Both the position numbers and the translations under genes were made by a program. Below, piece after piece: positions 10,112 to 63,675 of a stretch of DNA of 64,000 bases. The first letter of the stretch is position 1. The number at the start of each line of letters is the position of its first letter. This stretch comes from Cetorhinus maximus (lineage: Eukaryota), in assembly GCF_964194155.1 (NCBI RefSeq), contig NC_135889.1:107136001-107200000 (forward strand). The letters run 5' to 3'. The notes beneath the pieces were generated by a model. The model was not told the DNA's origin and ran no database searches. It saw nothing but the letters and a program-made list of their open reading frames with translations.

Positions 10112-13100
10112 GATGAAAATATGGAAACTGAAAATGAATTTGATACCCAGGTTGCAATGGAGGCAATCAATGAAGATAAATTGTTTGATCAAGAAACTGA
10201 CCAAGACTCTGCTGGTCACAAGGGAAGCAGGACTGAACAAATCATTGGAGATTCTATAGACCTTAATTGCAGTGGCAAACAAGAAGAAGTGAAGAACACG
10301 GCGGCTGAATCTATGTCAAACTGCACTGGTGGTGCTTCTGAATCGGGGGTCAGCAGTGCAGAGGTCAGTGGTAGTTCTACCTCCTCCGACATTATCTCTG
10401 GAACACCACAAAAATCCAGCAGCAGACGACAATCGTTTATTACTCTGGAGAAGTTTGATCCCTCCACTACGTGCTGCTTCAGTAAATCACCTTTGGTTAA
10501 ATTTGCACAAGCAGCTGCTGAAGCTTTTGCTCCTCAGCAGACCGAAGCAATGGAGGTGGAAGATGTATCACAGCTTGAGGTGGACAAAGTTTGCCAGGAT
10601 GTCAGTTTGAATAATACAAAAACTGAAGCAGCGAATGTCTCAATCACTGAGGGGAAACGCAGTAGACGCAGGCAAAATAAAACTGAACCGTCGATTGTAG
10701 AAAAACCAACCAACTGCACCAAAGCGCCTAGAAGTATTAAGAGTTCTGACGGTGAATCATCTGATGCAAAAGAAAATTCTTCAACTAATGATAGAGACAC
10801 TCCTAATAAAAACAAAGCTGACTGCAGCCGAAGTTCTGAGAGTCGGACAAGTAACAAACCGACAAAAGGCAGTGTTTTTAATGAAGAGAAGAATCCTGCA
10901 TCATCTCCTGTGGTTTTGAAAGAGAAAGCTTCAGCAGAAGGTGCTTCAAGCACACAAGATGAGAGGAATGCACATTCTTCAATTCTGACAAAAAAAACAC
11001 TAAGACGTTCTTCTAGGAAGCACTTGGATGTGGCAGTGGCTGCTCAGGCAGGTAACAAGGGAAAAAGGGAGGATAATAAACTTGGGAAAAGATCACAAAA
11101 CGAGGCGGCAGAGCCTCTTCAGGGCAAGTCTCAGCATGACGAGCTTTCAAAGGGAAAGGAGAATGATTCTAAAAGTTCACCTGGCAAGTCAGCAACTGAG
11201 AAAAGCAGGTCTTTAAAAACTGATTCTCAAGACTCTGACTCTAACAAAACTACCCCAGCTGCTGGCAAAGTCCGCCCTCGCTACCAGACTCGTAGGGCAT
11301 CTCAAGGTTTGTCTGACTTAGAGAACAGCTGTTGTGGCATGACTGAATCGGAGAGTTCTGAAGGCAACTCAAAAGTTCAGGATGGTCAAAAGAAAAGAAG
11401 AACGTTTAAGGGGAAAACAAAGACCAAAGAGCTGTCCCTTGAGGACAGCAAGACTAAAAATGTGGTGGAACATGAACCGACCCTGGGCAGTCAACTATAC
11501 TCAAAAAATGAAACTATGGAGATGCAGTGTTCAGAAACAGAATTGGAGATTGAAAATAAGCAAGAAGATGCAGTAATGACACAAGTGGTAGATATAGAAA
11601 ATCTGGATGAAATAAATATTGCACAGATGTCTCCAGGGACTTGTGCTTTAGTTGAAAAGCCAAATGCAGAAGAGGACCCTAAAACACAGAGCATAGCACA
11701 TCCCACAAGAGAAGAGTCTGAAACTGTTGAAAGTGTTAAAACTGAGCTTGATTTAGAACGAGGCAAAACAGAAGAAGCCTGCACTATTGTCCATGCTGAA
11801 TACTTGCCTTATGAGGCAGGAGTTTCAACAACTGAATTATCAACTGACGATTGTTCAAATCTTTCAGATGTGCAACTTTCAGTCAAGAAGAGCCAGCAGT
11901 TGAATGAGTGCCATGTGAGAAGTAAAAGGACCAGGAAAACTAAAAACTGTGATTGTTGCAAAGACTCTTCACAACAGCATGGGAAGTCACGTTTGGAAAG
12001 CAAAGAGAGTTCCACCAAACGAGAGCCACGATCTGATGATCAGAAAGAAGAATCACACCTAAATTCGGTTTATTATTCTTCTACAGAAGGGCTATTAAAA
12101 AGTCCCACATTTAACGACACTGTAAATGATGGACCCTGTGCGTTCAGCACTCCCCTTTCGGGGAATAGCAAAACACAGTTTTTTGGTATTTCTCTTAGTA
12201 CTGTTGCATCGGAGGTGGATTTGGCTGAAGAGAAAAAGCTCACTCCGAGGATTGAAACCTCCACGGAGCAGAAAATGGTGGAGGAGTCCTATTCAGTGCG
12301 GAAAGCACTGAACGACTCTTCCACAGAGCCGAAAATGGTGGAGGAGTCCTGTACAGAGCAGAAAGCAATGGATGACTCTTCCATGGAGCAGAAAGTGGTG
12401 GAGGAGTACTGTACAGAGCGGAAAGCGATGGATAACTCTTCCACTGGTCAGAAAATGGTGGAGTCCTCCTCTACAGAGCAGAAAGTGTTGGATGACTCTT
12501 CCACTGGTCAGAAAATGGTGGAGTCCTCCTCTACAGAGCAGAAAGTGTTGGATGACTCTTCCACTGGTCAGAAAATGGTGGAGTCCTCCTCTACAGAGCA
12601 GAAAGTGTTGGATGACTCTTCCACTGGTGAGAAAATGGTGGAGTCCTCCTCTACAGAGCAGAAAGTGATGGATGACTCTTCCACTAAGCAGGAAGTTGTG
12701 GATGAGTCCTCTACAGAGCGGAAAGCAATGGGTGATCCTTCCACAGAGCAGAAAGTTGTGGAGGAGTCCTCTACAGAGTGGAAAGCGATGGGTGACTCTT
12801 CCACTGGTCAGAAAATGACGGAGGAGTCCTCTACAGAGCGGAAAGCGATGGGTGACTCTTCCACTGGTCAGAAAATGATGGAGGAGTCCTCTACAGAGCA
12901 GAAAGTGATGGGTGATTCTTCCACAGAGCAGAAAGCTGAAGAAATTTTAAATTATGGAGGGAGTGAACAAGTGGAATTAATGGCAGAGGCTGATGGCACT
13001 GTTGAAGTGTCAATGTCAGAAGGTGAACCAGTGTCCAATGATGTTGTCTTGATAGAAGGTGAACAGTTGGAAAGCAAAGAAACAGTAGCTGGCTATGAAC

Positions 13101-30818: not shown

Positions 30819-30992
30819 TTAGATGGCATCCACATAGTTAGCAGGCAGCATGCCTGTCAACCCAGTCCTTTGTACAGTACCATACATCCATCCTTCATCA
30901 ATGGACTGAACATTCATAAGGAAGTCACCATCTTTGAAAGAGACTTCATCTGCATCAGCTGCTGAATAATCATATATGGCACGGTATGTTTT
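30819..30992 (-). CDS. NEB: Nebulin last exon, SH3 domain
   Basis: ccacag|AAA...TAA. Encodes [57 protein letters not shown]; the RIF1-NEB tail-to-tail synteny supports NEB. Confidence 0.95.
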
Positions 30993-47740: not shown

Positions 47741-47833
47741 CGAGCTGATGTTCTTCTGTGTCTCTTTTACACGCTTCACCTCAGGCAGGTCAGAGATTGC
47801 AGTTCCTTTCCCAATACCTTCCTTGTACTTGAT
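47741..47833 (-). CDS. NEB: Nebulin 93-bp array exon A
   Basis: tttgtag|ATC...TCG|gtagct. Encodes IKYKEGIGKGTAISDLPEVKRVKETQKNISS. Confidence 0.9.
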
Positions 47834-49512
47834 CTACAAAGTGCGTAGATCAGAAAAGAAAAGAACAGCCTGTCAGCACACAACAAACGCAACACACGGA
47901 CCAACACAAACTGCAACAAGTTACACCAGTTCTAATAAGTTAAACTGGCGAATTAGATTATGTTATCAAATACCATTTAACTATTCTCAAAGTAATCACA
48001 AGTTATCAAAAGCACCAAGGAAAATGTAAACAAACTTTCTGAGATTCAATGTGATGTCCATATGAAATGAAACACATTTGAAATTGAAAGTTCGTTAGTT
48101 AGAAAATGGAAAGTTGGTTAGTTGAAATCAAATTTTAACCTTAGTGAAAGAGTACCATTCAAAGTTACATGTTCAGCAAAAAGATCACTGTCAATGATCA
48201 CGGCAAAATTCCTCATGCTTCCATCCCTGAAAATAATGTCGCAATCGTGCCCAGCAGTGCCCTCCAGCGCTAATCTTGGTGCAGTTTTTCCACTATTAAT
48301 GCAACTCGTTAGTATGGGGCAAGCTCCTCTTCAGGGTACATCTCTGGCTCTGATCTGTAACTGGTAACTGGAGACTCCAGCAATCGCTTGATCATGGGGC
48401 AGATGGGGATTCCCTCGGCCCATCCATGGTCATAACTAATGAAGCCAAACTGCAATAGTTTTTCTCTTCTAAGGCGCAAGCTGCTGAACTCATGATGATT
48501 TCAATGATAGGGCCCATGATTGGGTTTGTAGAGTACACAATGCCTACACTCCTTCAGTGTACCACTAATACGCAAGGTCACCCTCCAGGCTCAGGAGCAG
48601 AAACTCTTGCTTTATTGAGTCCCTGCCTCTGGTCCTAGTCTCTACTTGCCTGACAAACAGAAGACCCACCCCTTAAAAGAGAGCTGGAGAACTCCTGGAA
48701 ATGGTGGACAACCAGCGCAACCAAGTTTGGCCATTTTTTTTAAGCGGGTCCTGCCAGAGATGCAGAAGGAGATTGTGAAAACCAATATAGAACAACCTCC
48801 TTGACCGCCACCCAGATATATTGCAATGATTGCTAAAACTCATTACGTGAAATTGTATTTTTTGTTTTAGCAACTCTTTGCTTTATATTTAAAAAATGCC
48901 AGTGGCTCTAGTTTGGATGACCAGTTAAAGTAAAGTCGGCTTCTTACAATTAAAGTTAATGTGAATCACTCTGAAAATTTGAAGCTACAAATCAAAAGAA
49001 TTATGCAGGAATGTGAAACCAAACTTCAAATTCAAATAATTAAAAATCAAAGCTCTGATTTAGATTCCAAAACATGCTGCAACTGATTTTGTATTTAAAA
49101 GCCTTTAGGTTATTTGACAAGTATTTCAGATGTCATGTGCAATAAAGCTACATTGCTGTTGATTTAACTTACTAATTATGCTTTGTTATAATGAAGTCCA
49201 GGACTTCCAACATACCTACTTCATGCCTGGCATTCTTAGTTACGTCTCAAAGAAGTCATTCTCAGAGAGCCACAATCCTGAGTTAGTTCCACAAAAATCA
49301 AGAAGTTAAAACTAATTTCAAATATCTTGTGGGAAAATGGTGTTATTCATTTCAGGAGTATATGTTTCAACAATCGGGGAAACCTGTTAAAACGATATTG
49401 AGGAGTAAACTGTGAAAAGGAGGAATTGTGTGAATTGTGTTTTAGTGCTAGGAAGGGTTGGGTAGTAAGGGGGTGGATTGTGGGTTAACACAGAAATCAA
49501 GTCAACAGCTAC

Positions 49513-49605
49513 CGAGCTGATGTTCTTCTGTGTCTCCTTTACACGCCGCACCTCAGGCAGGTCAGAGATTGCAGTTCCTTGACCAACATTTTCCTTGTAT
49601 TTGAT
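49513..49605 (-). CDS. NEB: Nebulin 93-bp array exon B
   Basis: Encodes IKYKENVGQGTAISDLPEVRRVKETQKNISS; AG/GT intact. Confidence 0.9.
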
Positions 49606-50737
49606 CTACAAAGTGTGCAGATCAGGGAAGAAAAGACAAACTGTAAGCACATGACAAACAACAACAGCTTGCATTTGCATAGAACTTGAACATAATGAAA
49701 GTTCCCAGTGCCCTTCAGAGGAACAATTATCAAACAAAACTTTACACGGGGTTACATAAAACGCTAGCTAACGAAGACAATCTTAATTAAAGAGATAGGT
49801 TTTAAGGCATGTCGCAATGTTGGAAAGAGAAGTAGAGAGGCAGGGAGGTTTAGGGAGGAATTCCATGAGCTGCAGTAATACAGGACTTTATACAAATGAT
49901 GTCAAGTGAGACTGTATCCACACTAGAGATTGGATTGGCCTAGTGGATAAAGGCTTCAGCCAATCTAGCACTAACTCACACAAACCAGAAAGTAGCCTTG
50001 ATTTAATTCCCAATATTTGTTGAGTAGTAGCCATGCCAACAAATGAAGAGCGACAATTAACCTCAGCACCATTGGGACAGGGAAGGAAAAATCAACCAGG
50101 GATGCCAATGCGGATATCCATCCAGCAATTTCTGCTTCTGCAAAGTCAGGATGAATCTTCATGGTGATCCTTCCACAGTCATTGCCAACTCAAGGTCTAA
50201 GCTCCTACACCTGGTGAGATGGTGGAGGGCTGCCAGAGCATGAACACGTACTGCAGAATTTGGAAATCAACCTGGATACAAAAACCTTTAAAAATAATCC
50301 TAAAAGTTCTGATTCGATGATAATAAAAGTACAGAGCTAAATGTTGACTTTGTGGTTCTGATTCAAATTCCATCAATATTCCAAAGCCTGCTTTCCTGTT
50401 GTTTTTTTTGGAAGCTGTTTAATCCATGCTATAGATGCTGTATTCGTATTACAGTCATGGCTTCTTAATGTTGTTCTTTGTTTTCTGTCTCACTGCACAG
50501 CATCGTAAGGTCTTACGAAAAATTGCTTACGCAAGCTCTTCCCCCATCAATAAAATCTATATGTCAAAATTGACAAAACTTTATGTATAAGGCACAAAAA
50601 GGTTTCAAGAATTTGAAAAAAAAGTTACATAAAAAAAGACTAGAAAAAAAATGACATTAATTGTGTTTAGTGACAGGAAGTTTCGGACAGGGGATATCAT
50701 GAGTTTAAAAAAAAAGGGGAATCAAATTGGCAACTAC

Positions 50738-50830
50738 CGAGCTGATGTTCTTCTGTGTCTCCTTCACACGCTTCACCTCAGGCAGGTCAGAGACTGCAGT
50801 TCCTTGACCAACATTCTCCTTGTATTTGAT
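50738..50830 (-). CDS. NEB: Nebulin 93-bp array exon C
   Basis: Encodes IKYKENVGQGTAVSDLPEVKRVKETQKNISS; AG/GT intact. Confidence 0.9.
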
Positions 50831-51919
50831 CTACAAAGTGTGCAGATCAGAGAAGAAAGGACAAACTGTCAGCACATCACAAACGAAAAACAAAAGCAAC
50901 CAACATTTATACAGGACCTTTAACATAGCAAACATCCCAAGGCACTTTACAGGAACCATCATCAAACAAAATTTGACAACGAGCCACCCAAGGCAACATT
51001 AGGACAGCAGAGATAGGGTGTTAAGGAGTATCTTAAAGGAGGAAAGAGAGGTAGAAAGGCAGAGAAATGAAGGGAGGGAATTTCAGAACTACAGTAATAG
51101 GTAGACATTATACAAATGCTATGAAGCCACAGACTGCATCAAACCACATGGAATTCTCCCACAATAGCCTAGTGGGTAGAGGCATCAACCAGTCTTGCAC
51201 TAAGTCACACAAACCAGTAAGCAGCCTTTAATTCCCAGTCTGTGTTGCGATCATAGTAAACATGGCAACACGTGAAGAGCTGGCTTTGGCATCATTGGGG
51301 CTGGGAGAGAAAACTAGCCTGTGGATGGCAATGTTGGTGTCTATCCAGCAATTTCTGCTCCTGTACAGTCAGGATTAAGCTTCATAATGTTGTTCCGAGG
51401 GTTGAATAGTCTACTCATTATCTAAGCTTACAGAAGGAGGGCCACTTGGATGAGGTTGTGACAGACTGCTGAAGCATGAATCCATACGACAATGTCAATC
51501 AGCACCTTCAGCAAAGGAGGCCAGAAAGGGGGGAAATAAATTCTGTATTGCGAAAAGGGAACTGCAGGTATTGCCAATGACATTGTGGCCTGGATTTTTG
51601 CAATGAAAGAGGGCCCTTCTGTCAAAAATGGTGAAAGAAGCTGAAATCTGGAAGTTCCATCCCTGCAACACGGCACCTACTATTTTCACGGGAATGGGCC
51701 CAAGATTTGTACATACAGTTTTGCGGAAGCAACTGCCTATATACATCAGTAGCTGTCTCCGGTCATGTCTAATTTTGGTGACCCATATGTGTGAAACATG
51801 ATGTGTGCAGAATAGACCTGGTAGGAGCAGGTCTGAGCTTTGTGGAGTCCTTTGGAGAGGTGGGGTATCCTTTTGGGGAGGTAGGGAACCTCTTTGGATA
51901 TAGTTTTGGGACACAGCAG

Positions 51920-52219
51920 TTAATCATCATCATCGTCATCGACTGGGACAAAGATGTCACGTTCCTCCAGTAATGAGGCGAAGCTCTTGCTGATCTGATT
52001 GCCCATGTAGAGAAAAGGGACGACCACAACAAAGACTTTCATGAGACCAAAGGAAGTCTTGACAGGTCTGGGTAAAATGGCTCCCGATTTTGTCACCACC
52101 ACGTTTCTGAAAGAGTTGAGTTGAATCCCAGCTTTAGTTCGGGGATTCAGAAGGCCCCGGGTTACCTCAGTGCTCAGGGATCTTCCGAGTCCAAACAGAC
52201 GCCACCCGACCGCCACCAT
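51920..52219 (-). CDS. SMDT1: Intronless EMRE (essential MCU regulator) retrocopy with an intact 99-aa ORF; retrogene or young processed pseudogene
   Basis: RNVVVTKSGAILPRPVKTSFGLMKVFVVVVPFLYMGNQISKSFASLLEERDIFVPVDDDDDD aligns with recalled human EMRE RSVIVTRSGAILPKPVKMSFGLLRVFSIVIPFLYVGTLISKNFAALLEEHDIFVPEDDDDDD. Has an Arg/Leu-rich presequence-like N-terminus and no intron. Confidence 0.9.
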   Translation of the reverse strand: MVAVGWRLFGLGRSLSTEVTRGLLNPRTKAGIQLNSFRNVVVTKSGAILPRPVKTSFGLMKVFVVVVPFLYMGNQISKSFASLLEERDIFVPVDDDDDD

Positions 52220-53149
52220 ATTTATGAGGTTGTCTCAAAAGGTCAGGTGCCCTTTGGGGGAGGTCAGGTGGTGTTTTGGAAAGGTAGGTTGCCCCTTGGG
52301 ATTGTTAAAAGCATGAATGTGCATACAAAATGCATGAACTCATTAACTGTCAACCTCATTGGAACTGTCAAAAGTGTCAAAATGAAGTGTCAAAGGCAAC
52401 TGTCAAGCTGTCAAGACATTTACAACTCCTGCCCTTTAAATCCTTGAAACAAATGTCTGGAGTTTAAAAAAATCATGACTTGCTATTTCACTCTGTCTGT
52501 TGACATAAACCTGAGGGCTACCATTACTGGATTTGTGCTGCACAACCTTCCATTATCACAGTAGGATGCCTGTCATTTCAGAATATGATTGACAGCTCCA
52601 AGTGCTTATCAACTCTTTGAAGCAGGACTATGAATTCCAACGCTTGTTTTTCTAAAGGATTATGCACAAATGAAATGTTTGTTCTTATATGGGTTTATGT
52701 AATTGAAAGAAAGTAAATATAGAAAATGGGTTTTTACGAATTAGACTAATTCTTCAAAATAAAGTCTGCAATAGACACATAGAATGTCATTTTTTTTCAT
52801 TTCAGCATGGCTCCTGAGCTCTGCCCATGGTAGATACTGGGTGAGTTGACATGGTAGCTGTAAGGGCAAAAGGTGGTGGGTTGGGTGCATGGGTTTCTGT
52901 GAGTTGGCATAGGGGCTATAAAGGTCATGGGGGTATGTGGAGGGCATGGAGGAGATGAGGGGCCATGGGGATGTGTGTGGCACATAGGTAGGCATGGAGG
53001 GTATGAGGGGCCAAGGGAGCATGGGAAGTTTGAGGGGGTGTGAGGGGTGAGGGCTGGAGGGCCATTTTGTGTTTTACTGTTTTTTAAAAACTCAACACAA
53101 TGCTGGAACACAGAGGCAGGCCTTCTTCCCAGCCTGCTACTGCACCCAG

Positions 53150-54015
53150 CAGCCTCTGCAATGGCTATTGGATCATACTTACTTATTTCTATTTGCACTG
53201 TTAGTTCATCTGTTTTGTTTCAAATGCTATGTGCATTCAGACACAGAGCCTCAAGTTTTGTCCTTTTATTATTTTTGTAACCTCTACTCTTTGACTTGTG
53301 GTCTCTGTCCCTTCCTGTCATGGTGTGTTTATCATTTCCCAAATTAATACCTTCCCCTCTCATCTGTCTCTACTCTTTAATTTACCACAGCTTCCCACAT
53401 TCGATCCCTTGCCCCCACAATTTAGTTTAAAACTCTTTCTGCTTCCCTAGTTATGCCTAGATGTCTCGAGAACCCTGGCACCAGGCAGGCAACACAGCCT
53501 TCTGGACTCTCACTCTTTACTGCAGAGATCAGTGTCAATCCCCCTCACTATACTGTCCTCTACTAGCACTACATTCCTGCTTGCTCCCACCGCTTGACCG
53601 GCTTCCTATACAATGGTGCTATGGCCAGCCTGCTCATCCACCTTGCAGACCTTGCTTTCAGCCACACAGGTTGTGAGCACTTCAAACCTGTTGGACAATT
53701 GCAAAGTCTGAGGTTTCTCCACTACTGTCTCCTCAGTCCCATTACCTGTCTCACTCACAGGCACATCCACTGCTGGCCAAAACAGATGACCCTATTCTAA
53801 AAGATGTGGCTGTCTACTGGAACAAAGTGTCCAGATATTCCTCGCCCTCCCTTAGGTTGCACAATGTCTGCAGTTCAGCTTCCAAATCAATAATCCTGAT
53901 CCTGAATTCCTCAAGCTGCTTACACTTCCTGCAAACATGTTTGTCATGGATCGCCTTGGCGTCCAAAAACTCTCACATTCCACAGCTGCAACATAACACC
54001 TGTCCTGCCATTGTT
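53150..54015 (-). mobile_element. CR1 ORF1 remnant (zinc finger/leucine zipper)
   Basis: - strand reads MAGQVLCCSCGM*..HVCRKCKQLEEFRIRIIDLEAELQTL. Confidence 0.55.
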
Positions 54016-54399
54016 ACTTATGTTATTTAGTTAATTTAATCACTTTCTTAATTAACTTAGAATAATTCCTATGTATGCTACAATTTACTGTGCTTATTAA
54101 ATGTTAGTACCACTGACAACTAGAAGTTACGTGTTTCTTGACTACACAGGTATGTGTTTTAGGTGTTTAAAATTAAAATAAATTAAAGTAAAGTTTTAGT
54201 TCGATTTTATTTATAGTTCTACCATAACTCCTGTGGCCTAAGCTGTTTATTATTACACTATCCCTAACACTAAGCACTTACCGGCCAATCTATAAACTTA
54301 CAAAAGTACTATACTATTTGAAACCCTAGGAACAGAATAAACCTTAACCACTCACCAGATATTCACAAGCTAGCTTCTTCTCTAACCAATTAAACTCAC

Positions 54400-54930
54400 A
54401 AGTCAGGAATACTCTCCACTTGCCTTGATCAATGCGGCTTCAATAACACTCAAGAAGTTCAACACCACCCAGGACAAAGAAATTCATTTGATCGGCACCC
54501 CATACATCACTTTCAACATCCACTCCCTCCACCACTGACACACAATGGCAGCAGGGTGTACTACATACAAGATTCTCTGCAACTACACACCATGGCTCCT
54601 TAGACAGTAACTTCCAAACTCTTGATCTCTACCACCTTGAAAAATAAGGGCAGCAGTCGCATGGGAACACGACCACCTGCAAGTTCCCCTCCAAGCCACA
54701 CACCATCCTGACTTGGAACTATATCGCCGTTCCTTCAGTATTGCTTGGTCAAAGTCCTGGAACCCCCTTCCTAACAGCACTGTGGGCCACGCGTAGGTTC
54801 CCGCGCCAGATGGACTACAGCAGTTCAAGAATGCGGCTCACCACCACCTTCTCAAGGGCAATTACGGATGGGCAACAAATGCTGGCCTTGTCAGCAACAT
54901 ATGTATCCCATGAAACATTAAAAAAAAAAC
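54400..54930 (+). mobile_element. CR1 LINE 3' fragment with A-tail
   Basis: Homologous to 25555-26120. Confidence 0.8.
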
Positions 54931-56101
54931 TACTGAGGCTGGTAGAAAACCTCCCACCGTGTATGCCAATGTTGATGTCCATCCAGCAATTTCCGCTAAT
55001 ACGAAGTCAGGATTAAGCTTTACAGTTGAATAGCCTACCCATTATATAGCTTACAGAAGTAGAACCACTTGGCTGAGATGGTGTCAGGCTGCTGAAGGAT
55101 GAATCTATACCACAATATCAGTCAGCCCCTTCGACAAAGGAGGGCAGAAAGAGGGGAACAAAATATGTATTACATCAAACTACAAAATACAGGTCATAAA
55201 AGGGAACTGCTGGTTAGATATGCAATTAACATTTTCAGTAAATGTCCTGAAATCAGAGAGTACCTTCATTGTAAGTAATTAAATAAAGAAAGCTCATGCT
55301 GTATCCCTTTAGAACTAATCACGTTTTTTTTACTACTTTGCCTTCAAATAACTTATAGACCTAATGGAGATTGGGAATTGATAGATTGAATCTTAGTAGA
55401 AAAATTAAATATGATATTTTATCTTTAAGATGAATGTACCAAGCAACACCATTTAAATTGAATGTAACTTTATCACTAAATGGATTACAATAGTTTCAAA
55501 AAGATTTATTTATTAATAACATGTGGCTCAATGTGAATTTTTTAAAATCCTGAAGATGCTAAAAGTGAAGGACTGAGTTCCGTATCACAAATGAAATTCT
55601 GATTGGCAGATCTCAAAAATTAATCTAGATTCAAAAATTTGAAACACTAAGGTTTGAGTTAGAGATGATAAAAGTATGAGGCTAAATGTTGACTTTGAGG
55701 TTCAAAATCAAAGGCCATCATTATGTTAAAGTCTGTTTTCCTGCAGTGTTATTGAAAGCTGTGTCATTTATACTGTTGATGCTGTATTGATATTACAATC
55801 ACAGTTTTGTTATGTTGCTTTTGGTTTACTTTCTCAACGCATTGTATTAAAATGTATGACCAAAAAAAAAGCTTAACCATTAATTTTCTTCCCCCTCACA
55901 TATATGTAAATTCAAAACTGATAAAAAAAAACTTAAGTACATTTCACAAAAATGTTTCAAAAATTAGAAAAGGTTAAAATAAATTTGAAAAAAAAGGCTA
56001 GAAAAAATTGGCATTAATTGTGTTTAGTGGTAAGAGGTACTGGGTAGTAAGGGCCAGGGTGAATCATAGGTTGAGAAAAGGGGAATCAAATTGGCAACTA
56101 C

Positions 56102-56194
56102 CGAGCTGATGTTCTTCTGTGTCTCCTTCACACGCTTCACCTCAGGCAGGTCAGAAACTGCAGTTCCTTGACCAACATTTTCCTTGTATTTGAT
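56102..56194 (-). CDS. NEB: Nebulin 93-bp array exon D
   Basis: Encodes IKYKENVGQGTAVSDLPEVKRVKETQKNISS; AG/GT intact. Confidence 0.9.
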
Positions 56195-56889
56195 CTACAA
56201 AGTGTGCAGATCAGGGAGGAAAGGACAAACTGTCAGCACATCACAAACAAACAACAACAACTGGCGTTTACGTAACACCATCAACATAGTAAAACGTTCT
56301 AAGGCACTTTACAGGAGCCATCAACCAACAAACTTTGACATCATAGCACATAAGGCAACATAAGAACAGAGAAGTGATTTTAAGGGGTGGTTTAAAGGAT
56401 GAGGGAGATGCGAAGAACTGGAGAAGATTAGGGAAGGAATTCCAGAGCTACAGTCACATGTAGACTTTATATAAATGATGTCAAGCCACAGACTTCACCT
56501 CGCTACACATTTGAATCTGCTTTATTGGCCTAGCGGGTAAAGGGATCAGCCAGTCCGGTACCAATTCACACAAATCAGTAAAACAGCCTTGGTTCAAATT
56601 CCAGGTCGGTTTTGAGGAAGTAGCTATGACAAAATGTGATGAGCTATAACGAGTCTCAGCGTTCCTGGGAAGGGAAACTCGGCCGAGTATGCCAATGTTG
56701 ATGCCTATCCAGCAATTTCTTCTTCTGCAAAGCCGGGGTGAAACTTTATAGTGACGTTTCCATAGTTTAATAGCCTAACCATTATCCTAGCTTACAGAAG
56801 AAGGCCGCTTGGGTGGCATGTTGATGGGCTGCTGGAGTATGAATCTATACTACAATATCAGTCAGTACCTTCAGCAAATGAGGGCTGGT

Positions 56890-57470
56890 TGAGTACGGTC
56901 AGTACTCTGCCTATTGCAAACAACCCAAAGGGACATGCTGTTTGATATGGTCCGCCAGTCATTGGGACATATCGCTTACGTACCTGGCATCACACCGGCA
57001 CTGAAATTCATGTACCATATTACTCATTTGTGTGGTAGGCAGAACGCCTTTTTGGTTTTGCATCAGCATCCACTCGCGTTGCCACTGCACAGTAGCAGCA
57101 TGAGTCAGTTGGCTTCATCTGTTGCTCAAATTATCGAGATACTTTACCTTTTCAAGGTATTTGAGGTAGCTGGGGACTTTTCAGGTCTGAAAGTGTGGGC
57201 CACAATGCACAGCGAGCAATAATCTGATCGGGGTAGCCATTATCCCACAGGATAGCTTTGATGCGCCCTACGGCATCAAGCATGCATAGTTTGCAAATGG
57301 CATAGGCCCTATTTATGAGATTGTCGATAAGGCCAATCTTATAGCAGTGGAACTGTAGGAATCCCAATGCATATATTGAAGGTAGGCTTGCGGTAAACTG
57401 TAGTGGAAAACAAATTAGCAGATTTCTCAACTAGCAATTCAAGGAAAGGCTTTGAAAGGCTTCGATAGAG
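56890..57470 (-). mobile_element. Penelope-like retroelement fragment
   Basis: YKIGLIDNLINRAYAIC..IKAILWDNGYPDQII, the post-RT helical domain of Penelope-type elements. Confidence 0.65.
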
Positions 57471-58064
57471 TATCTCTTTCTTCAGCAGGAATCAAGTATG
57501 TATTACAGTGCATCAAATTACACGGTGCAGGCCAAGAGGGGGGGCTGGAGATTTCGCCAATGAAACTATGAATTGCAGATGTCAAAATAAATCCAGGTTT
57601 AAAAACATTCAATACTAAGTTCTGCTTGGGAGATAATAAAAGTACAGGGCTAAAATGTTAATTTTGTGATTCTGGTTCAAATTCCATCAATACCCCAAAG
57701 CCTGTTTATCTGCTATTTTTGGAAGCCGTGTAATCTGTGCTATTGATGCTGTATTCATAATACAGGTTTTCTTATGTTGCCTTGTTTTCTTTCTGAATGC
57801 ACAGCACTAAAAAAAGTCTGACAAAAAATGCTTTTGACAGCAATTTCCTTTGCCCCGATAATATATAAATTTTAAAACTGATTTTAAAAAAAGCTTTTGA
57901 GTAAATTCCACAAAATGTTTCAAGAATTAGGATAAGTTAAAAATAAACTTGAAGAAAAACGCCTTGAAAAATGACATTAACTGTGCTTATTGGCAGGAAA
58001 TGCTGGGTAGTAAGGTGTGGGATGAATCATGGGTTAAAAAAACGGAAAACAAATTAGCAGCTAC

Positions 58065-58157
58065 CGAGCTGATGTTCTTCTGAGTCTCCTTTACACGCTG
58101 CACCTCAGGCAGGTCAGAGATTGCAGTTCCTTGACCAATATTTTCCTTGTATTTGAT
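58065..58157 (-). CDS. NEB: Nebulin 93-bp array exon E
   Basis: Encodes IKYKENIGQGTAISDLPEVQRVKETQKNISS; AG/GT intact. Confidence 0.9.
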
Positions 58158-58227
58158 CTACAAAATGTGCAGACCAGGGATGAAAGTACAAACTGTAAGC
58201 ACATGACAAACAAATAACGACAGCTAT

Positions 58228-58392
58228 TATCCTGGAACACCCTCCCTAACAGCACTGCGGGTGCACCTACACCACATGGACTGCAGTGGTTCAAGAAGGC
58301 AGCTCAGCACCACCTTCTCAAGGGCAATTAAGGATGGGCAATAAATTCTGGCCTAGCCAGCGACCCTCACATCCCTTGAACGAATAAAGAAA
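58228..58392 (+). mobile_element. Short CR1 3' end inserted in one array unit
   Basis: tcctggaac..ccctaacagcactg..cttctcaagggcaatt..tgaacgaataaa. Confidence 0.8.
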
Positions 58393-59544
58393 ATACAGCA
58401 TCTTAACATATTAAAACAGCCTAAGGCATTTCACAGGAGCTAGTATCAAAAAGAACTTGACTGTGAAAAACGTAGGGCAACATTAGGACAGAAGAGGTCG
58501 GTTTTAATGAGTGACTTAAAAGAGACAACAGAAGTAGAGAGGTGGAGGTTTAGGGAGGGAATTCCAGGGCTACAGTAAAATGTAGACGTCTTACAAACAA
58601 TGTCAAGCCACAGACTGCACAAAACCACACATGGGATTCTCCCCCATTAACCAACTGAGAAAGGCATCAGCCAGTTTAGCACTCGCTCAGACAAACCAGT
58701 AAATTCCCAGTCAGTTTTGTGACAGTCGCCATGGGAATGTATGATTAAGCTATAACCGGCCTCAGCATCCCGGTGGCTGGGAGGGGGAGCTCAGCCGGGG
58801 ATGCCAATGTCGATGTCTGGCCAGCAACTTCTGCTTCTGCAAAGTCCGGATGAAGCTTTCTAGTGATGATCCCACGGGTGAACAGCCTACCCATTATCTA
58901 AACTCACAGAAGGCGGCCCACTTGGATGGCTCTTGGTGCATGTATCTATACCACAATATCAGTCAGCCCCTTCAGCAAAGGAGGGCAGAAAGTATAGATT
59001 ATATCAAACTGCACACTGCAGACCAAAAGGGGAACTGTAGGTTTCTCTCATAAAATTCTGATGTGCAGATCTCAAAATTAATCCAGATTCATAAACCTTA
59101 AATTCTGATTTAAGCTCTGATTATGAGGTAACAAAAGTGCAGGCTTTGTTAACTTTGAGATTCTGATTTAAATTCCATCAATATGCTAAAACCTGTTTAT
59201 CTGCTGTTTTTTTGGAAGCTATGTAATAAATGCTATGGATATCGTAAATTGCAATCAAAGTTTGCTTATGTTGCCTTTTGTTTACTATCTCACTCTAGTG
59301 TGTTGCACAGCCTGACAAAAATTGCTTACTCATTCATTATTTTTCACCCTGAAGAAGACATAAATGTTAACATTGATAAGAACCTTATGTATATTCCACA
59401 AAAAAAGCTTAATGAATTAAAAAATAGTGAAATAAATTTGAAAAAGGATGAGAAAAAAGTCATTAATTGTAATTGTTGGTTAAAAAAAAAATGTTGGGTG
59501 GAAGGATAACGGGTTAAAAAAAGGGGAATCAAATTGGCAACTAC

Positions 59545-59637
59545 CGAACTGATGTTCTTCTGAGTCTCCTTCACACGCTTCACCTCAGGCAGGTCAGAGA
59601 TTGCAGTTCCTTGACCAACATTTTCTTTGTATTTGAT
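59545..59637 (-). CDS. NEB: Nebulin 93-bp array exon F
   Basis: Encodes IKYKENVGQGTAISDLPEVKRVKETQKNISS; AG/GT intact. Confidence 0.9.
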
Positions 59638-60892
59638 CTACAAAGCGTGTAGATCAGGGAGGAAAGGACAAACTGTCAGCACATGACTAACAAACAACAA
59701 CAAGAACTACTGGCATTTATATAGCACCTTTATCGTAGCAAAATATCCCAAGATACTTCAGAGGAGCCATTATCAAACAAAATTTGACACCAAAGCACAT
59801 AAGACAACGTGAGGACAGAAGAGATAGATTTTAAGGTGTGTCTTAAAGGAGAAGAGGGAGCTATTGAAGCAGGGAGGGATTTCCAGAGCTACAATGGTAC
59901 ATAGACTTTATGCAAATAATGTCAAGCCACAGACTGCACCAAATGACACATTGGAATCTCCCTCATTGACCTAGTGAGTAAAGGCAACAGACAGCCTGGC
60001 CCTAATTCACACAAACTGTAGTGGCCTTAGTTTAATTCCCAGTCTGTGTTGAGTTGGAAGCCATGGCAACACTTGGAAGAAGCTACTTCCAGCTTCAGAG
60101 ACCCTGGGACGAGGATGGGAATCTCAGCCGGGAAGACCAATGTTGACGCCTATCCAGAAATTTCTGCTCCTGCAAAGTCAGGTGGAGCCTTTATAATGAT
60201 GCTCCAACAGTTGAATAGCCTACCCGTTATATAAGCTTACAGAAGTGGGGCCACTTGGGTGAGATGATGTCAGGCTGCCAAAGCATGAATCTGTAGCACA
60301 ACATCAGTCAGCCCCTTCAGCAAAGGAGGGCAGAAAATGGGGAATAATGTGTATAGTACATCAGACTACACACTGCAGGCCAAAAAGGAAGTTTCAGGTT
60401 TCTCTAATGAAATTCCGATTTGGAGATCTCAGCAATTAATCTGGATTTTAAAATCTTAGACATTAAGTTCTGGTTCAGGGATAATAAAGTACGGGGCTCA
60501 ATGTTAACTTGGAGGTTCTGATTCAAATCCCATCACTATTCTAAAGCCTGTTTATCTGCTGTTTTGTTGGAAGTTGTGTAATCTATGCTGAAAGTGTTAT
60601 CTATTGCCATCATGGTTTTATTATGTTGCTTTTTGACTACTTTCTCACAGCACAGCATTGTGAATTATGACAAAAATAGCTTGTACATTATTTTTCCCTA
60701 TAAAATATAATGTCAAAATTGATTTTTTTAAAAAGTGTGAATTCCACAAAAATTTTTTTCAAGAATTAAAGTAAAATTGAAAAAAGACAAACAAGAAATG
60801 CCATCAATTGGCGTTTGGTGGCATTGGAAATGTTGGGTAGTAAGGTGCTGTGCTGTGGGATAAAAAAAAAAGGGAATCAAATTGGTAACTAC

Positions 60893-60985
60893 CGAGCTGA
60901 TGTTCTTCTGTGTCTCCTTTACACGCTTCACCTCAGGCAGGTCAGAGATTGCAGTTCCTTGACCAACATTTTCCTTGTATTTGAT
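60893..60985 (-). CDS. NEB: Nebulin 93-bp array exon G
   Basis: Encodes IKYKENVGQGTAISDLPEVKRVKETQKNISS; AG/GT intact. Confidence 0.9.
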
Positions 60986-62197
60986 CTACAAAGCACGTAG
61001 ATCAGGGAGGAAAGGACAAACTGTAAGCACGTGACAAACAGCAACACATGAACTTTCTGCAAACAATATCCAGACACACACTGCACCAAGCTACACACTG
61101 GGTTCTCCTCCATTGGCCAAATGGGTAAATAAATGCATCTGCTTGCAGACTGTACAAACCAGCAAGTCACTGACTTTGATTCTAATTCCCTTGTACAGTA
61201 GAATACAATTGGCATGGGGTGGGAGGGCATAATTAAAATGGGATAGGGAATTTACCCACTGTTTTCCCACTCCGATCTGGCCAACAGTAATTTTAAATTG
61301 CTAGTGGCAAGGACTTCCGCCCCAAACCTGTGGGGTCCTCTTTAAGTGTACAAGTCAGGCTCCAACCACATCATCTCAGCTTAATCTAGCCTGAGTGGAT
61401 AGCCGTGATGGCTTCCCCATGAAGCCAAACCTGTGGGGAACAGCAGCAAGGGCCAGAAGAGATAAGCTTTACATATCTTTGCATATGTCAATGCTGTCCA
61501 GGAGCTAAAATCTCCCCAGGTCTTAGCAGATGAGTTTGTCGCTTGCCCTGGGCTCATTCTCAATCATCAATCCTGCTCTGAGTTAAAATTAAGGCCCCTG
61601 CTTCATTCTCAATTGAACTCCTATAGTAGGCAGAACAGCAATTGGAGACCTCAGCAGGAAGCCTCAGGTTCCTTGGGCTAGAAAAGGGAAAAAAAAAATT
61701 CAGCCTATATTCTTGCTCTCTAGAAACCTGTTCTCCATGATAAATAGCCTCTAGGTGTTTAAATCCACATGGGGAGAATGATCATGCTGGAAATGTATTG
61801 GAGGGCTATGTGTGCTGATGTACCCATATTCCAGTATAAATTGGCTCTCCTTCACCAGAAGACAGTGAACAGAATGGAAAAAAAGTATATATACACTATG
61901 TCAAACTCCACACTGCAAGCAAAAAAGGCAACTGTAGGTTAAGTATGTCATCTGTTTGTGTTTCACTTTTTGTTAAGGCAGGTGATTAAGTGGACCAGGG
62001 TTTTGTTTAAGCATTCATTTTGAACTTGACAAAGCCTTTGGTTAATTCCATAAAAAACAAAAATTAGAATATAAGTTCTAGCTAAATCAAAATAAATTAG
62101 ACTAGAGAAATTGTGTGAATTCTGTTTAGTGCAAGGGAGGTTCGGTAGTAAAGGTGAATTATGGCGTAATACAGAGGGAAATCAAATTAGCAGCTAC

Positions 62198-62290
62198 CGA
62201 GCTGATGTTCTTCTGTGTCTCCTTTACACGCTGCACCTCAGGCAGGTCAGAGATTGCAGTTCCTTGTCCAACACTTTCCTTGTATTTGAT
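62198..62290 (-). CDS. NEB: Nebulin 93-bp array exon H
   Basis: Encodes IKYKESVGQGTAISDLPEVQRVKETQKNISS; AG/GT intact. Confidence 0.9.
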
Positions 62291-62976
62291 CTACAAAGTG
62301 TGTAGACCAGGGAGGAAAGGACAAATTGTAAATACATGACCAACAATGACAAATAGACCGAGACAAACTACATATCACAATGGATTAGACACTACAACAA
62401 ACTGCAAACATCAAACTACACAGAATAAATGAAGAACAGAACTCTTGCATTACACAGACCAAACATGCAGCCAATCAACTAAAATTAATTTTGATCTACT
62501 CCTTTTAATTCAATTAGATATTTTGCTTGTAATTATGTGAATTTTACATGTGTGACATTGGGAAAAAAACTTACTTAATCATGAACTTGGTTTTCTTACA
62601 CGGATGGGCAATTAGTTTTAATCTTTGAATGAATATGATATGAAAGCAGCATGCTTAGTCTTTAAGAATGCTTAAAGTTCCAGCTATATCCAGTATTCAC
62701 AACTATTTTATTATAATAGTCCTTATAAGTATATTCAAATGTTGTTAAGTTGGAGACATGGGGCTGGCCAGTTGATGCAAAAAAAAAATGCTTTCAATCA
62801 ATTTTTTTTTGAAGAAACCACTGATGAAGCAAACCTAAAATCTGGAAATTGAGTTTATGATTCAAGTTACAGTAGATTGATATTGAATGTTGAATCCACA
62901 CCTACAAATCTAATTTAAAAATTCCAAAATAGCATTCTGAGCTTGAGTTTCCAAATCACAATTCATTTTTGTATAA

Positions 62977-63175
62977 TTCCAAAGTGATTCCAGATTTGGA
63001 AATCCCAGAAGTGATTCCGGATTTGGAAATCCCAGAAGTGATTCCGGATTTGGAAATCCCAGAAGTGATTCCGGATTTGGAAATCCCAGAAGTGATTCCA
63101 GATTTGGAAATCCCAGAAGTGAATCGGGATTTGGAGATCCCAAAGTTGAATCTTGATTTCAAGAATCCAAAAGTG
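62977..63175 (+). repeat. 27-bp minisatellite, about 7 units
   Basis: (gtgattccggatttggaaatcccagaa)n with degenerate terminal units. Confidence 0.92.
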
Positions 63176-63582
63176 GTGCTCTAAATTTGAATCTGAAGAT
63201 CAGATTCTCCTAATATGCCTTGAAATTCACTCTGGGATTGGCTTTTAAATCTTGACTGTTTAAGTATCTCCCTCTAGTAACATTTACTGCAGGTGTATCT
63301 GTGTCCATAATAAAGCTCTTCTGATGCGTTTGTTGCCTTTTTTCATTTTCCCCACGTAGCTCTCTACCACTTCTGCAGTCTTCTGTCCTAAAAGCAGTCC
63401 TAAAAAAAAATGTCCTCACCAAAATTGTTCACATTTCAAAAATACAAATGAGTTTGAATGATTTGAAAAATGAAAAAGAAATTATAGGGAAATGGTATCA
63501 ATGAAATTTAGTTTATGACACAATGGGTTAGGTGGTCTGGGTGGATCATGAGGTGACATAAGGAAATTAAACCAGCAGCTAC

Positions 63583-63675
63583 CGAGCTGATGTTCTTCTG
63601 AGTCTCCTTTACACGCTTCACCTCAGGCAGGTCAGAGATTGCAGTTCCTTGACCAACATTTTCCTTGTATTTGAT
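63583..63675 (-). CDS. NEB: Nebulin 93-bp array exon I
   Basis: Encodes IKYKENVGQGTAISDLPEVKRVKETQKNISS; AG/GT intact. Confidence 0.9.

Follow-up and report, generated by a model that had tools for sequence, protein, structure and literature searches.

A probable young processed pseudogene of SMDT1 within the nebulin gene of Cetorhinus maximus, and a family of copies ending next to a splice donor

Introduction

Classical L1-type retrocopies, which are primed at poly(A), show precise loss of introns, dispersal from the parent gene, variable truncation at the 5' end and loss of the promoter. A heritable insertion requires an event in the germ line. Tailless retropseudogenes with hot-spot 3' ends have been described in therians and the anole, mostly from small-RNA sources and, in the accessible text of that study, among loci chosen by flanking duplications (PMC5322556). 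Human mRNA/LINE-1 chimeras carry 5' exons up to the donor before a long intron; these exons are fused to LINE-1, and trans-splicing has been proposed, according to the available part of the report (10.1101/2025.02.02.635956). Stringent and relaxed types of LINE recognition (PMC3747384), signatures of RTE elements (PMC6007223) and class 2 templated insertions that patch DNA breaks (PMC5110952) have also been described. For cartilaginous fishes, 14,081 retrocopies are reported, 15.7% of them with an ORF; SMDT1 is unnamed in the main text of that work (10.64898/2026.06.26.734816). Neither SMDT1 retrocopies nor, for sharks, tailless copies of mRNAs are described in the open-access literature that we searched.

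Here we analyse a stretch of 64,000 nucleotides from C. maximus (hereafter the window), in which a first-pass annotation had pointed to an EMRE/SMDT1 reading frame, and compare the locus with its parent gene, with further SMDT1 copies and with copies of control genes.

Results

A duplicated part of nebulin hosts the copy

The following exons of the host gene are relevant here:
47741..63675, minus strand: array of nebulin repeat exons, nine in number, each of 93 nt and in phase 0, with almost the same sequence
56102..56194, minus strand: nebulin Z-repeat exon that precedes the SMDT1 copy in the sense direction, phase 0, AG/GT borders intact
50738..50830, minus strand: nebulin Z-repeat exon downstream of the copy
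30822..30992, minus strand: nebulin C-terminal SH3 exon, which fixes the identity and strand of the host

The best match of the SH3 exon is nebulin (1ark), with nearly equal scores for LASP1 and nebulette, and more nebulin-repeat exons were found upstream through ~55 kb. Exons 56102-56194 and 50738-50830 flank the copy, which is present in one of the nine array units. The duplicated intron of a unit measures ~1.1-1.9 kb and the copy-bearing intron 5.3 kb. The nine Z-repeat exons are 89-100% identical at the DNA level with intact AG/GT borders, and their introns are only ~73% alike; more divergent nebulin-repeat exons border the array. Published counts for cartilaginous fishes are 8-11 nebulin Z-repeats, and the Z-repeat region is alternatively spliced, as far as the accessible text goes (PMC7754682); the position of the array fits this region. 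Elsewhere in the window, positions 12260-12938 hold a tandem array with a period of ~60 nt and ~82% identity among its copies.

An intact EMRE frame copied from a spliced parent

The copy and its surroundings comprise four features:
51920..52219, minus strand: intact EMRE/SMDT1 ORF of the processed copy, 99 aa (ORF call, PF10161 and human EMRE match)
51914..52232, minus strand: whole parent-derived insert, no poly(A) (comparison with the parent)
52233..52239, minus strand: 7-nt filler at the 5' junction, replacing ~9 nt of host repeat (14 empty-site loci aligned)
51586..53160 (approximate ends), no strand assigned: high-copy host repeat around the insert, relatives ~70-87% identical

The frame runs from ATG to TAA (52219..51920) and encodes 99 aa; the plus strand has no open reading over 51920-52219. 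PF10161 matches residues 29-99 (E 4.6e-30, 103.6 bits, cut-off 27) and human EMRE (6o58_L) matches with E 1.1e-26. The closest database protein is Carcharodon SMDT1 (P0001, 95% identity). P-[KR]-P, the G-x-x-x-S helix and the poly-Asp tail that characterize the EMRE family are all present. The first-pass annotation had described an intact intronless frame nested in sense orientation within the nebulin exon array. Both points hold, the nebulin exons sharing with the copy the minus strand, which the annotation had left unstated. GAILPRP, GNQIS, the D6 tail and the start context aatATGG, also listed there, are all seen in the ORF; the Kozak context is present but merely taken over from the parent gene.

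That annotation had further called for a search for an intron-containing parental SMDT1, and we found this gene on contig C30, the window copy being on C11. The parent has three exons: two coding ones split by a 5,222-nt GT-AG intron, and a third, non-coding exon 8,186 nt downstream that was found via a loose end of spliced contigs. Intron 2 (8.2 kb) is a 3'-UTR intron with a weak donor (TGG/GTATAG) 7 nt after the stop. In the window copy the 5,222-nt intron is lost precisely and the exons abut, with the junction between 52058 and 52057. The copy is dispersed from its parent and has no parental promoter, homology beginning at -13.

Copy and parent are 96.3% identical over 322 nt. This compares with ~73% between the introns of the array units and supports the earlier proposal, made from the presence of the copy in a single unit, that it post-dates the unit duplications. 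The sequence of events would be duplication of the units, insertion of the host repeat and then insertion of the SMDT1 copy.

Contigs from read runs (4 runs of 24) extend the comparison to a second organism (organism C). In its run X11, one contig of 115 nt and one of 165 nt reach across the two junctions of the insert; each shows 4 differing letters, and 30-37 letters lie on the EMRE side, right at the bridging threshold of ~31 letters. Contigs from X11 and from X8, the latter without flank, carry the copy-type codon 10 and an in-frame 3-nt deletion, and we infer that they represent the orthologous copy. Since the X11 contigs span the junctions, the insertion is probably common to both organisms and older than their split.

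We also observed that the C30 parent has a lineage-specific A47T within the conserved GAIL motif, and that parental codon 67 encodes I, as against V in the window, C7 and C3 copies and in the contigs of organism C.

Junctions of the insert and the surrounding repeat

Counting the A of the ATG as 0, the stop ends at +299 and parent exon 2 at +306. The insert covers -13 to +302 exactly, and reaches +305 with one mismatch; it thus holds 13 nt of 5' UTR only and no more than 6 nt beyond the stop. Neither a poly(A) tail nor a target-site duplication, which had not been obvious in the first-pass annotation either, was found at the window copy. Comparison with 14 empty-site loci revealed instead a ~9-nt target deletion with a 7-nt filler, without duplication.

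Both flanks of the copy belong to one high-copy repeat. Searches from the two flanks gave 2,182 and 1,493 first-look candidates, 40 of which were scored from each. The repeat (51586-53160) is unclassified, at least 1.5 kb long, has more than 1,400 candidate copies and, where the copy inserted, includes 21-nt units repeated in tandem. For host repeats, the labels LINE-like, SINE, CR1 and L2 are tentative.

Substitutions and the status of the window copy

Ten codons separate the copy from its parent, half of them by synonymous and half by nonsynonymous changes. Polarized by sister copies and spliced contigs of organism C, the changes at codons 30, 47, 65, 67 and 73 fall on the parent branch. Those on the copy branch are replacements at codons 2, 74 and 87 (window positions 52215, 51999 and 51960) and synonymous changes at codons 10 and 68 (52190 and 52016); codon 2 was polarized from the C12a copy and orthologues. 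The copy retains the G-x-x-x-S, P-x-P and Asp tail typical of EMRE/SMDT1 (PF10161), but differs from this family by A2V, T74N and H87R at otherwise invariant sites: each of its own replacements lies at a column invariant in 14/14 orthologues (alignment of 14 of 20 hits). Among the changes relative to human that the first-pass annotation had named, T to N is indeed the copy's own. L to Q and E to V, in contrast, were already in the parent and other sharks (Q75 in the parent and 9/14 orthologues, V93 in the parent and 7/14).

The frame has no disabling change, and its 3N:2S pattern is compatible with neutrality (P of at least 2 synonymous of 5 = 0.38-0.51), although five changes have no power and leave mild purifying selection possible. 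For a neutral copy, the probability of no disabling substitution is ~0.8 and that of no frameshift also ~0.8 (rate from 7 sister copies, 5 per 115 substitutions), jointly ~0.6. An open frame is the expected state for a copy of this age. In the pieces assigned to the orthologous copy, which cover it partially, the only indel is the in-frame 3-nt deletion. Within 500 nt upstream of the copy, CpG o/e is 0.05 versus 0.38 at the parent, and no TATA-like match was found. From X18 and X20, presumed to be RNA runs, came a single parent-type contig apiece across the CDS; since rare variants drop out of contigs, this bears neither way on expression of the copy.

Overall, the locus is most probably a processed pseudogene of SMDT1, young and with a frame kept open by chance. 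This was one of two alternatives in the first-pass annotation, and the 3N:2S pattern, the neutral frame survival of ~0.6 and the lack of promoter features are in line with it. The other was a retrogene encoding a variant uniporter regulator. It finds little in the substitutions, most of the cited differences being parental and the 3:2 pattern inseparable from a neutral one. We consider it very unlikely that a variant EMRE is made in muscle, whether from a cryptic promoter within the host repeat or by processing of nebulin pre-mRNA. Such a gene would be consistent with the complete ORF and retained Kozak context, with an ATTAAA 685 nt downstream, and with the apparent presence of the copy in a second organism, where the pieces seen hold an in-frame deletion alone. 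It would also accord with the undamaged state of the essential motifs: in the accessible text of two studies, G-x-x-x-S (human G81 and S85, G73 and S77 in the copy) and the P-x-P anchor are essential, Trp substitutions at other helix positions still allowed MCU binding, and T82 is unmentioned in the main text (PMC4892889, PMC7764451). With G73, S77 and P-x-P kept, the protein might therefore work if made. Against a gene count the placement of all three replacements at 14/14-invariant sites, the chance of ~0.6 that a neutral frame survives anyway, the missing promoter features and the state of the 7 other copies, all truncated or frameshifted.

Exonization into nebulin, giving an EMRE segment in a Z-disc isoform, is exceedingly improbable: the sense orientation in an alternatively spliced region (PMC7754682, accessible text) and an AG before the insert would suit it, but this AG, the nearest one, leads to Thr-Thr-Ser-stop in the phase-0 frame of nebulin, and the AGs that are in frame fall within the ORF and have, by eye, no strong pyrimidine tract. 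As a pseudogene, the copy would in muscle be passively transcribed as part of a nebulin intron and then discarded.

Eight SMDT1 copies share a 3' end

Protein and DNA searches found at least 8 processed SMDT1 copies, including that of the window. All 8 span the exon junction or lie 3' of it. Their 5' ends vary from ~-19 to +180, and their 3' ends fall at +299, +300, +300, +302, +303, +304 and +305, with one at +296 followed by CTGATG-type repeats. Hence 8/8 copies break off no more than 10 nt before the exon-2 donor (+306), which follows the stop by 7 nt. An end exactly at +306 and free of a gap occurs in none of them. The last-exon UTR and a poly(A) tail, as expected for a classical poly(A)-primed pseudogene, were found in 0/8 copies. 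Genome-wide searches with exon 3 (882 nt) and with the start of intron 2 (349 nt) each matched the parent only. In three copies the end is followed by 2-5 A; the A-run of C12a is host sequence.

The copies are 4-12% diverged, form a star-like tree with end branches of 0.011-0.10 and have unrelated flanks, and therefore reflect repeated independent insertions. C12a has a clean target-site duplication of 10 nt. For C3 one of 5 nt is possible, and its junction also shows 3-nt microhomology (AAC). The flanking duplication together with an L1-type target site is absent at the window copy, present for C12a only and possible for C3. The C13 junction has a deletion with microhomology CTGA. Within the local sample, no empty site turned up for the C2, C7, C3 or C21 copy.

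Two origins of the family were rejected. A single transcribed master copy seeding the others conflicts with the unrelated flanks and the star tree, in which no fork is supported. A short transcript polyadenylated at the stop conflicts with the lack of AATAAA/ATTAAA before the ends and with a spliced contig from X20 that runs ~1 kb past the SMDT1 stop.

Individual copies have features of their own. The C7 copy (L003 1498-1668) has the N74 codon in common with the window copy but none of the remaining changes private to the latter. This could reflect gene conversion, recurrent mutation, a parental allele common to both copies or an origin of C7 from the window copy itself. C7 also has a short repeat fragment 17-30 nt after the stop. 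At the end of the C12b copy (L011 1501), a CTGATG-type unit is repeated in tandem three to four times; it equals the 6 nt after the parental stop, and the repeats look like slippage.

Retrocopies of control genes

As controls we took the copies of RPL32 (8), RPS3A (2), TPT1 (2) and HMGB (2), 14 in total; SLU7 contributed 0. The last-exon UTR is present in 13/14 control copies versus 0/8 SMDT1 copies (Fisher test, P-value 2.8e-5), and the poly(A) site is reached in 11/14 versus 0/8 (Fisher test, P-value 1.0e-3). Both P-values are overstated because the control genes were our own choice and have shorter UTRs, and because the types of search were unequal; copies of one gene are also non-independent draws. 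Short A tails occur in the RPL32 and RPS3A copies, where they are clear, and in one HMGB copy. The two control copies of RPL32 that end short, L089 (mid-exon) and L091 (inside the UTR), have ends off exon boundaries. HMGB is the most useful control because its copies pass a GAT-rich coding end: in both of them (n = 2 only) a GAT-rich tail ending in GATTAA is read through and the copy extends >400 nt further.

SLU7 is among the top retrocopied genes in cartilaginous fishes, according to the available part of the survey (10.64898/2026.06.26.734816); our search of this genome for SLU7 retrocopies returned the parent exons alone. The L091 (C8) copy of RPL32 ends in 26 nt, with the poly(A) signal among them, that run in the opposite orientation to its body. 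Copies L142 and L144 (C5) of HMGB and L129 (C1) of RPS3A are very young: they are 97-100% identical to the parent exons, their frames are open and they bear A tails. In this genome, a young retrocopy with an intact frame is nothing unusual.

Discussion

The SMDT1 copies share with classical poly(A)-primed retrocopies the precise loss of the intron, dispersal, variable 5' truncation and loss of the promoter, but they differ from them in lacking the 3' UTR and poly(A) and in showing a duplication in only 1-2 of 8 cases. They resemble the tailless retropseudogenes, as these are described in the accessible text (PMC5322556), in the lack of an oligo(A) tail and in clustered 3' ends (8/8 at +296 to +305). 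Unlike those, they come from a spliced mRNA, in a shark, mostly without duplication and with the hot spot at a splice donor. By analogy the copies may work like tailless retropseudogenes; we do not claim membership in that class. With the mRNA/LINE-1 chimeras, again as described in part of the source (10.1101/2025.02.02.635956), they have in common the capture of 5' exons to a donor upstream of a long intron. In contrast to the chimeras, the window, C12a, C13 and C12b copies are followed by no LINE body and lie in continuous host repeats.

How could such ends arise? The spliced exons 1 and 2 of the C30 parent were copied into an old repeat in the nebulin intron. In the mechanism that we put forward, a LINE reverse transcriptase primed via 0-4 nt of microhomology would have done this. 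The template would be an RNA whose free 3' end, slightly trimmed, coincides with that of exon 2, and most simply the released 5'-exon splicing intermediate of the long, weak-donor intron 2. That this intermediate was the template has, in our judgment, nearly an even chance. The broader proposal, that LINE reverse transcriptase in these sharks repeatedly captures the SMDT1 5'-exon intermediate and so generates UTR-less, CDS-complete copies, we hold somewhat more tentatively. With 7 nt from stop to donor, products of full length would carry exactly the ORF. The stop, a (GAT)n run and the donor all fall within 25 nt, so their effects are confounded and cannot be separated with SMDT1 alone.

It is possible, if rather unlikely, that the pseudogene arose when the full-length mRNA was primed internally, in a single-stranded hot spot directly 3' of its (GAT)n run. 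Truncation hot spots and internal priming as the favoured model are set out in the accessible text of Noll et al. 2015 (PMC5322556). The 3' microhomologies CTGA (C13) and AAC (C3), the slippage-like (CTGATG) repeats in which the C12b copy terminates and the stop region, predicted to be 40-70% unpaired, are all in line with this model. It leaves unexplained, however, the absence both of starts at the poly(A) end and of passage beyond the donor, and the GAT-rich GATTAA end failed to truncate 2/2 HMGB copies. Nor did a LINE family with a (GAT)8 tail emerge from 30 of 31 loci, and the likeness to an abundant LINE-like 3' end is by eye only.

Two forms of mimicry by SMDT1 were tried and rejected. 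For a LINE with a (GAT)n tail, (GAT)8 gave 31 matches, and the 30 loci examined have no shared LINE-like upstream sequence; a 454-kb sample held no LINE with a (GAT)n tail. For the stem-loop of an abundant LINE-like 3' end, 45 aligned ends gave a weak likeness by eye.

It is improbable that the pseudogene derives from a decay fragment trimmed at a terminating ribosome, or from its cDNA patching a DNA break. Ends within 6 nt of the stop and the 2-5 A that follow the end in three copies would fit a decay fragment, but copies of the control genes do not stop at their stop codons. To our knowledge, an intron 7 nt past the stop is not a classical trigger of NMD, which counts against a decay fragment as well. 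The target deletions with filler or microhomology (window, C13) resemble class 2 templated insertions, as far as these are described in the accessible text (PMC5110952); the clean 10-nt duplication of C12a, on the other hand, is typical of endonuclease-primed insertion.

As a gene, the window copy is probably unimportant. The pattern of the family could extend tailless retroposition to sharks and to spliced mRNA. If our preferred reading of a captured 5'-exon intermediate is true, the route to a retrocopy was set here by a splice donor instead of a poly(A) tail. This opens a genome-wide question, namely whether the ends of tailless retrocopies pile up at 5' splice sites. The SMDT1 family would then record, in fossil form, how an RNA end located at a donor site served as a template for reverse transcription over a long time (4-12% divergence).
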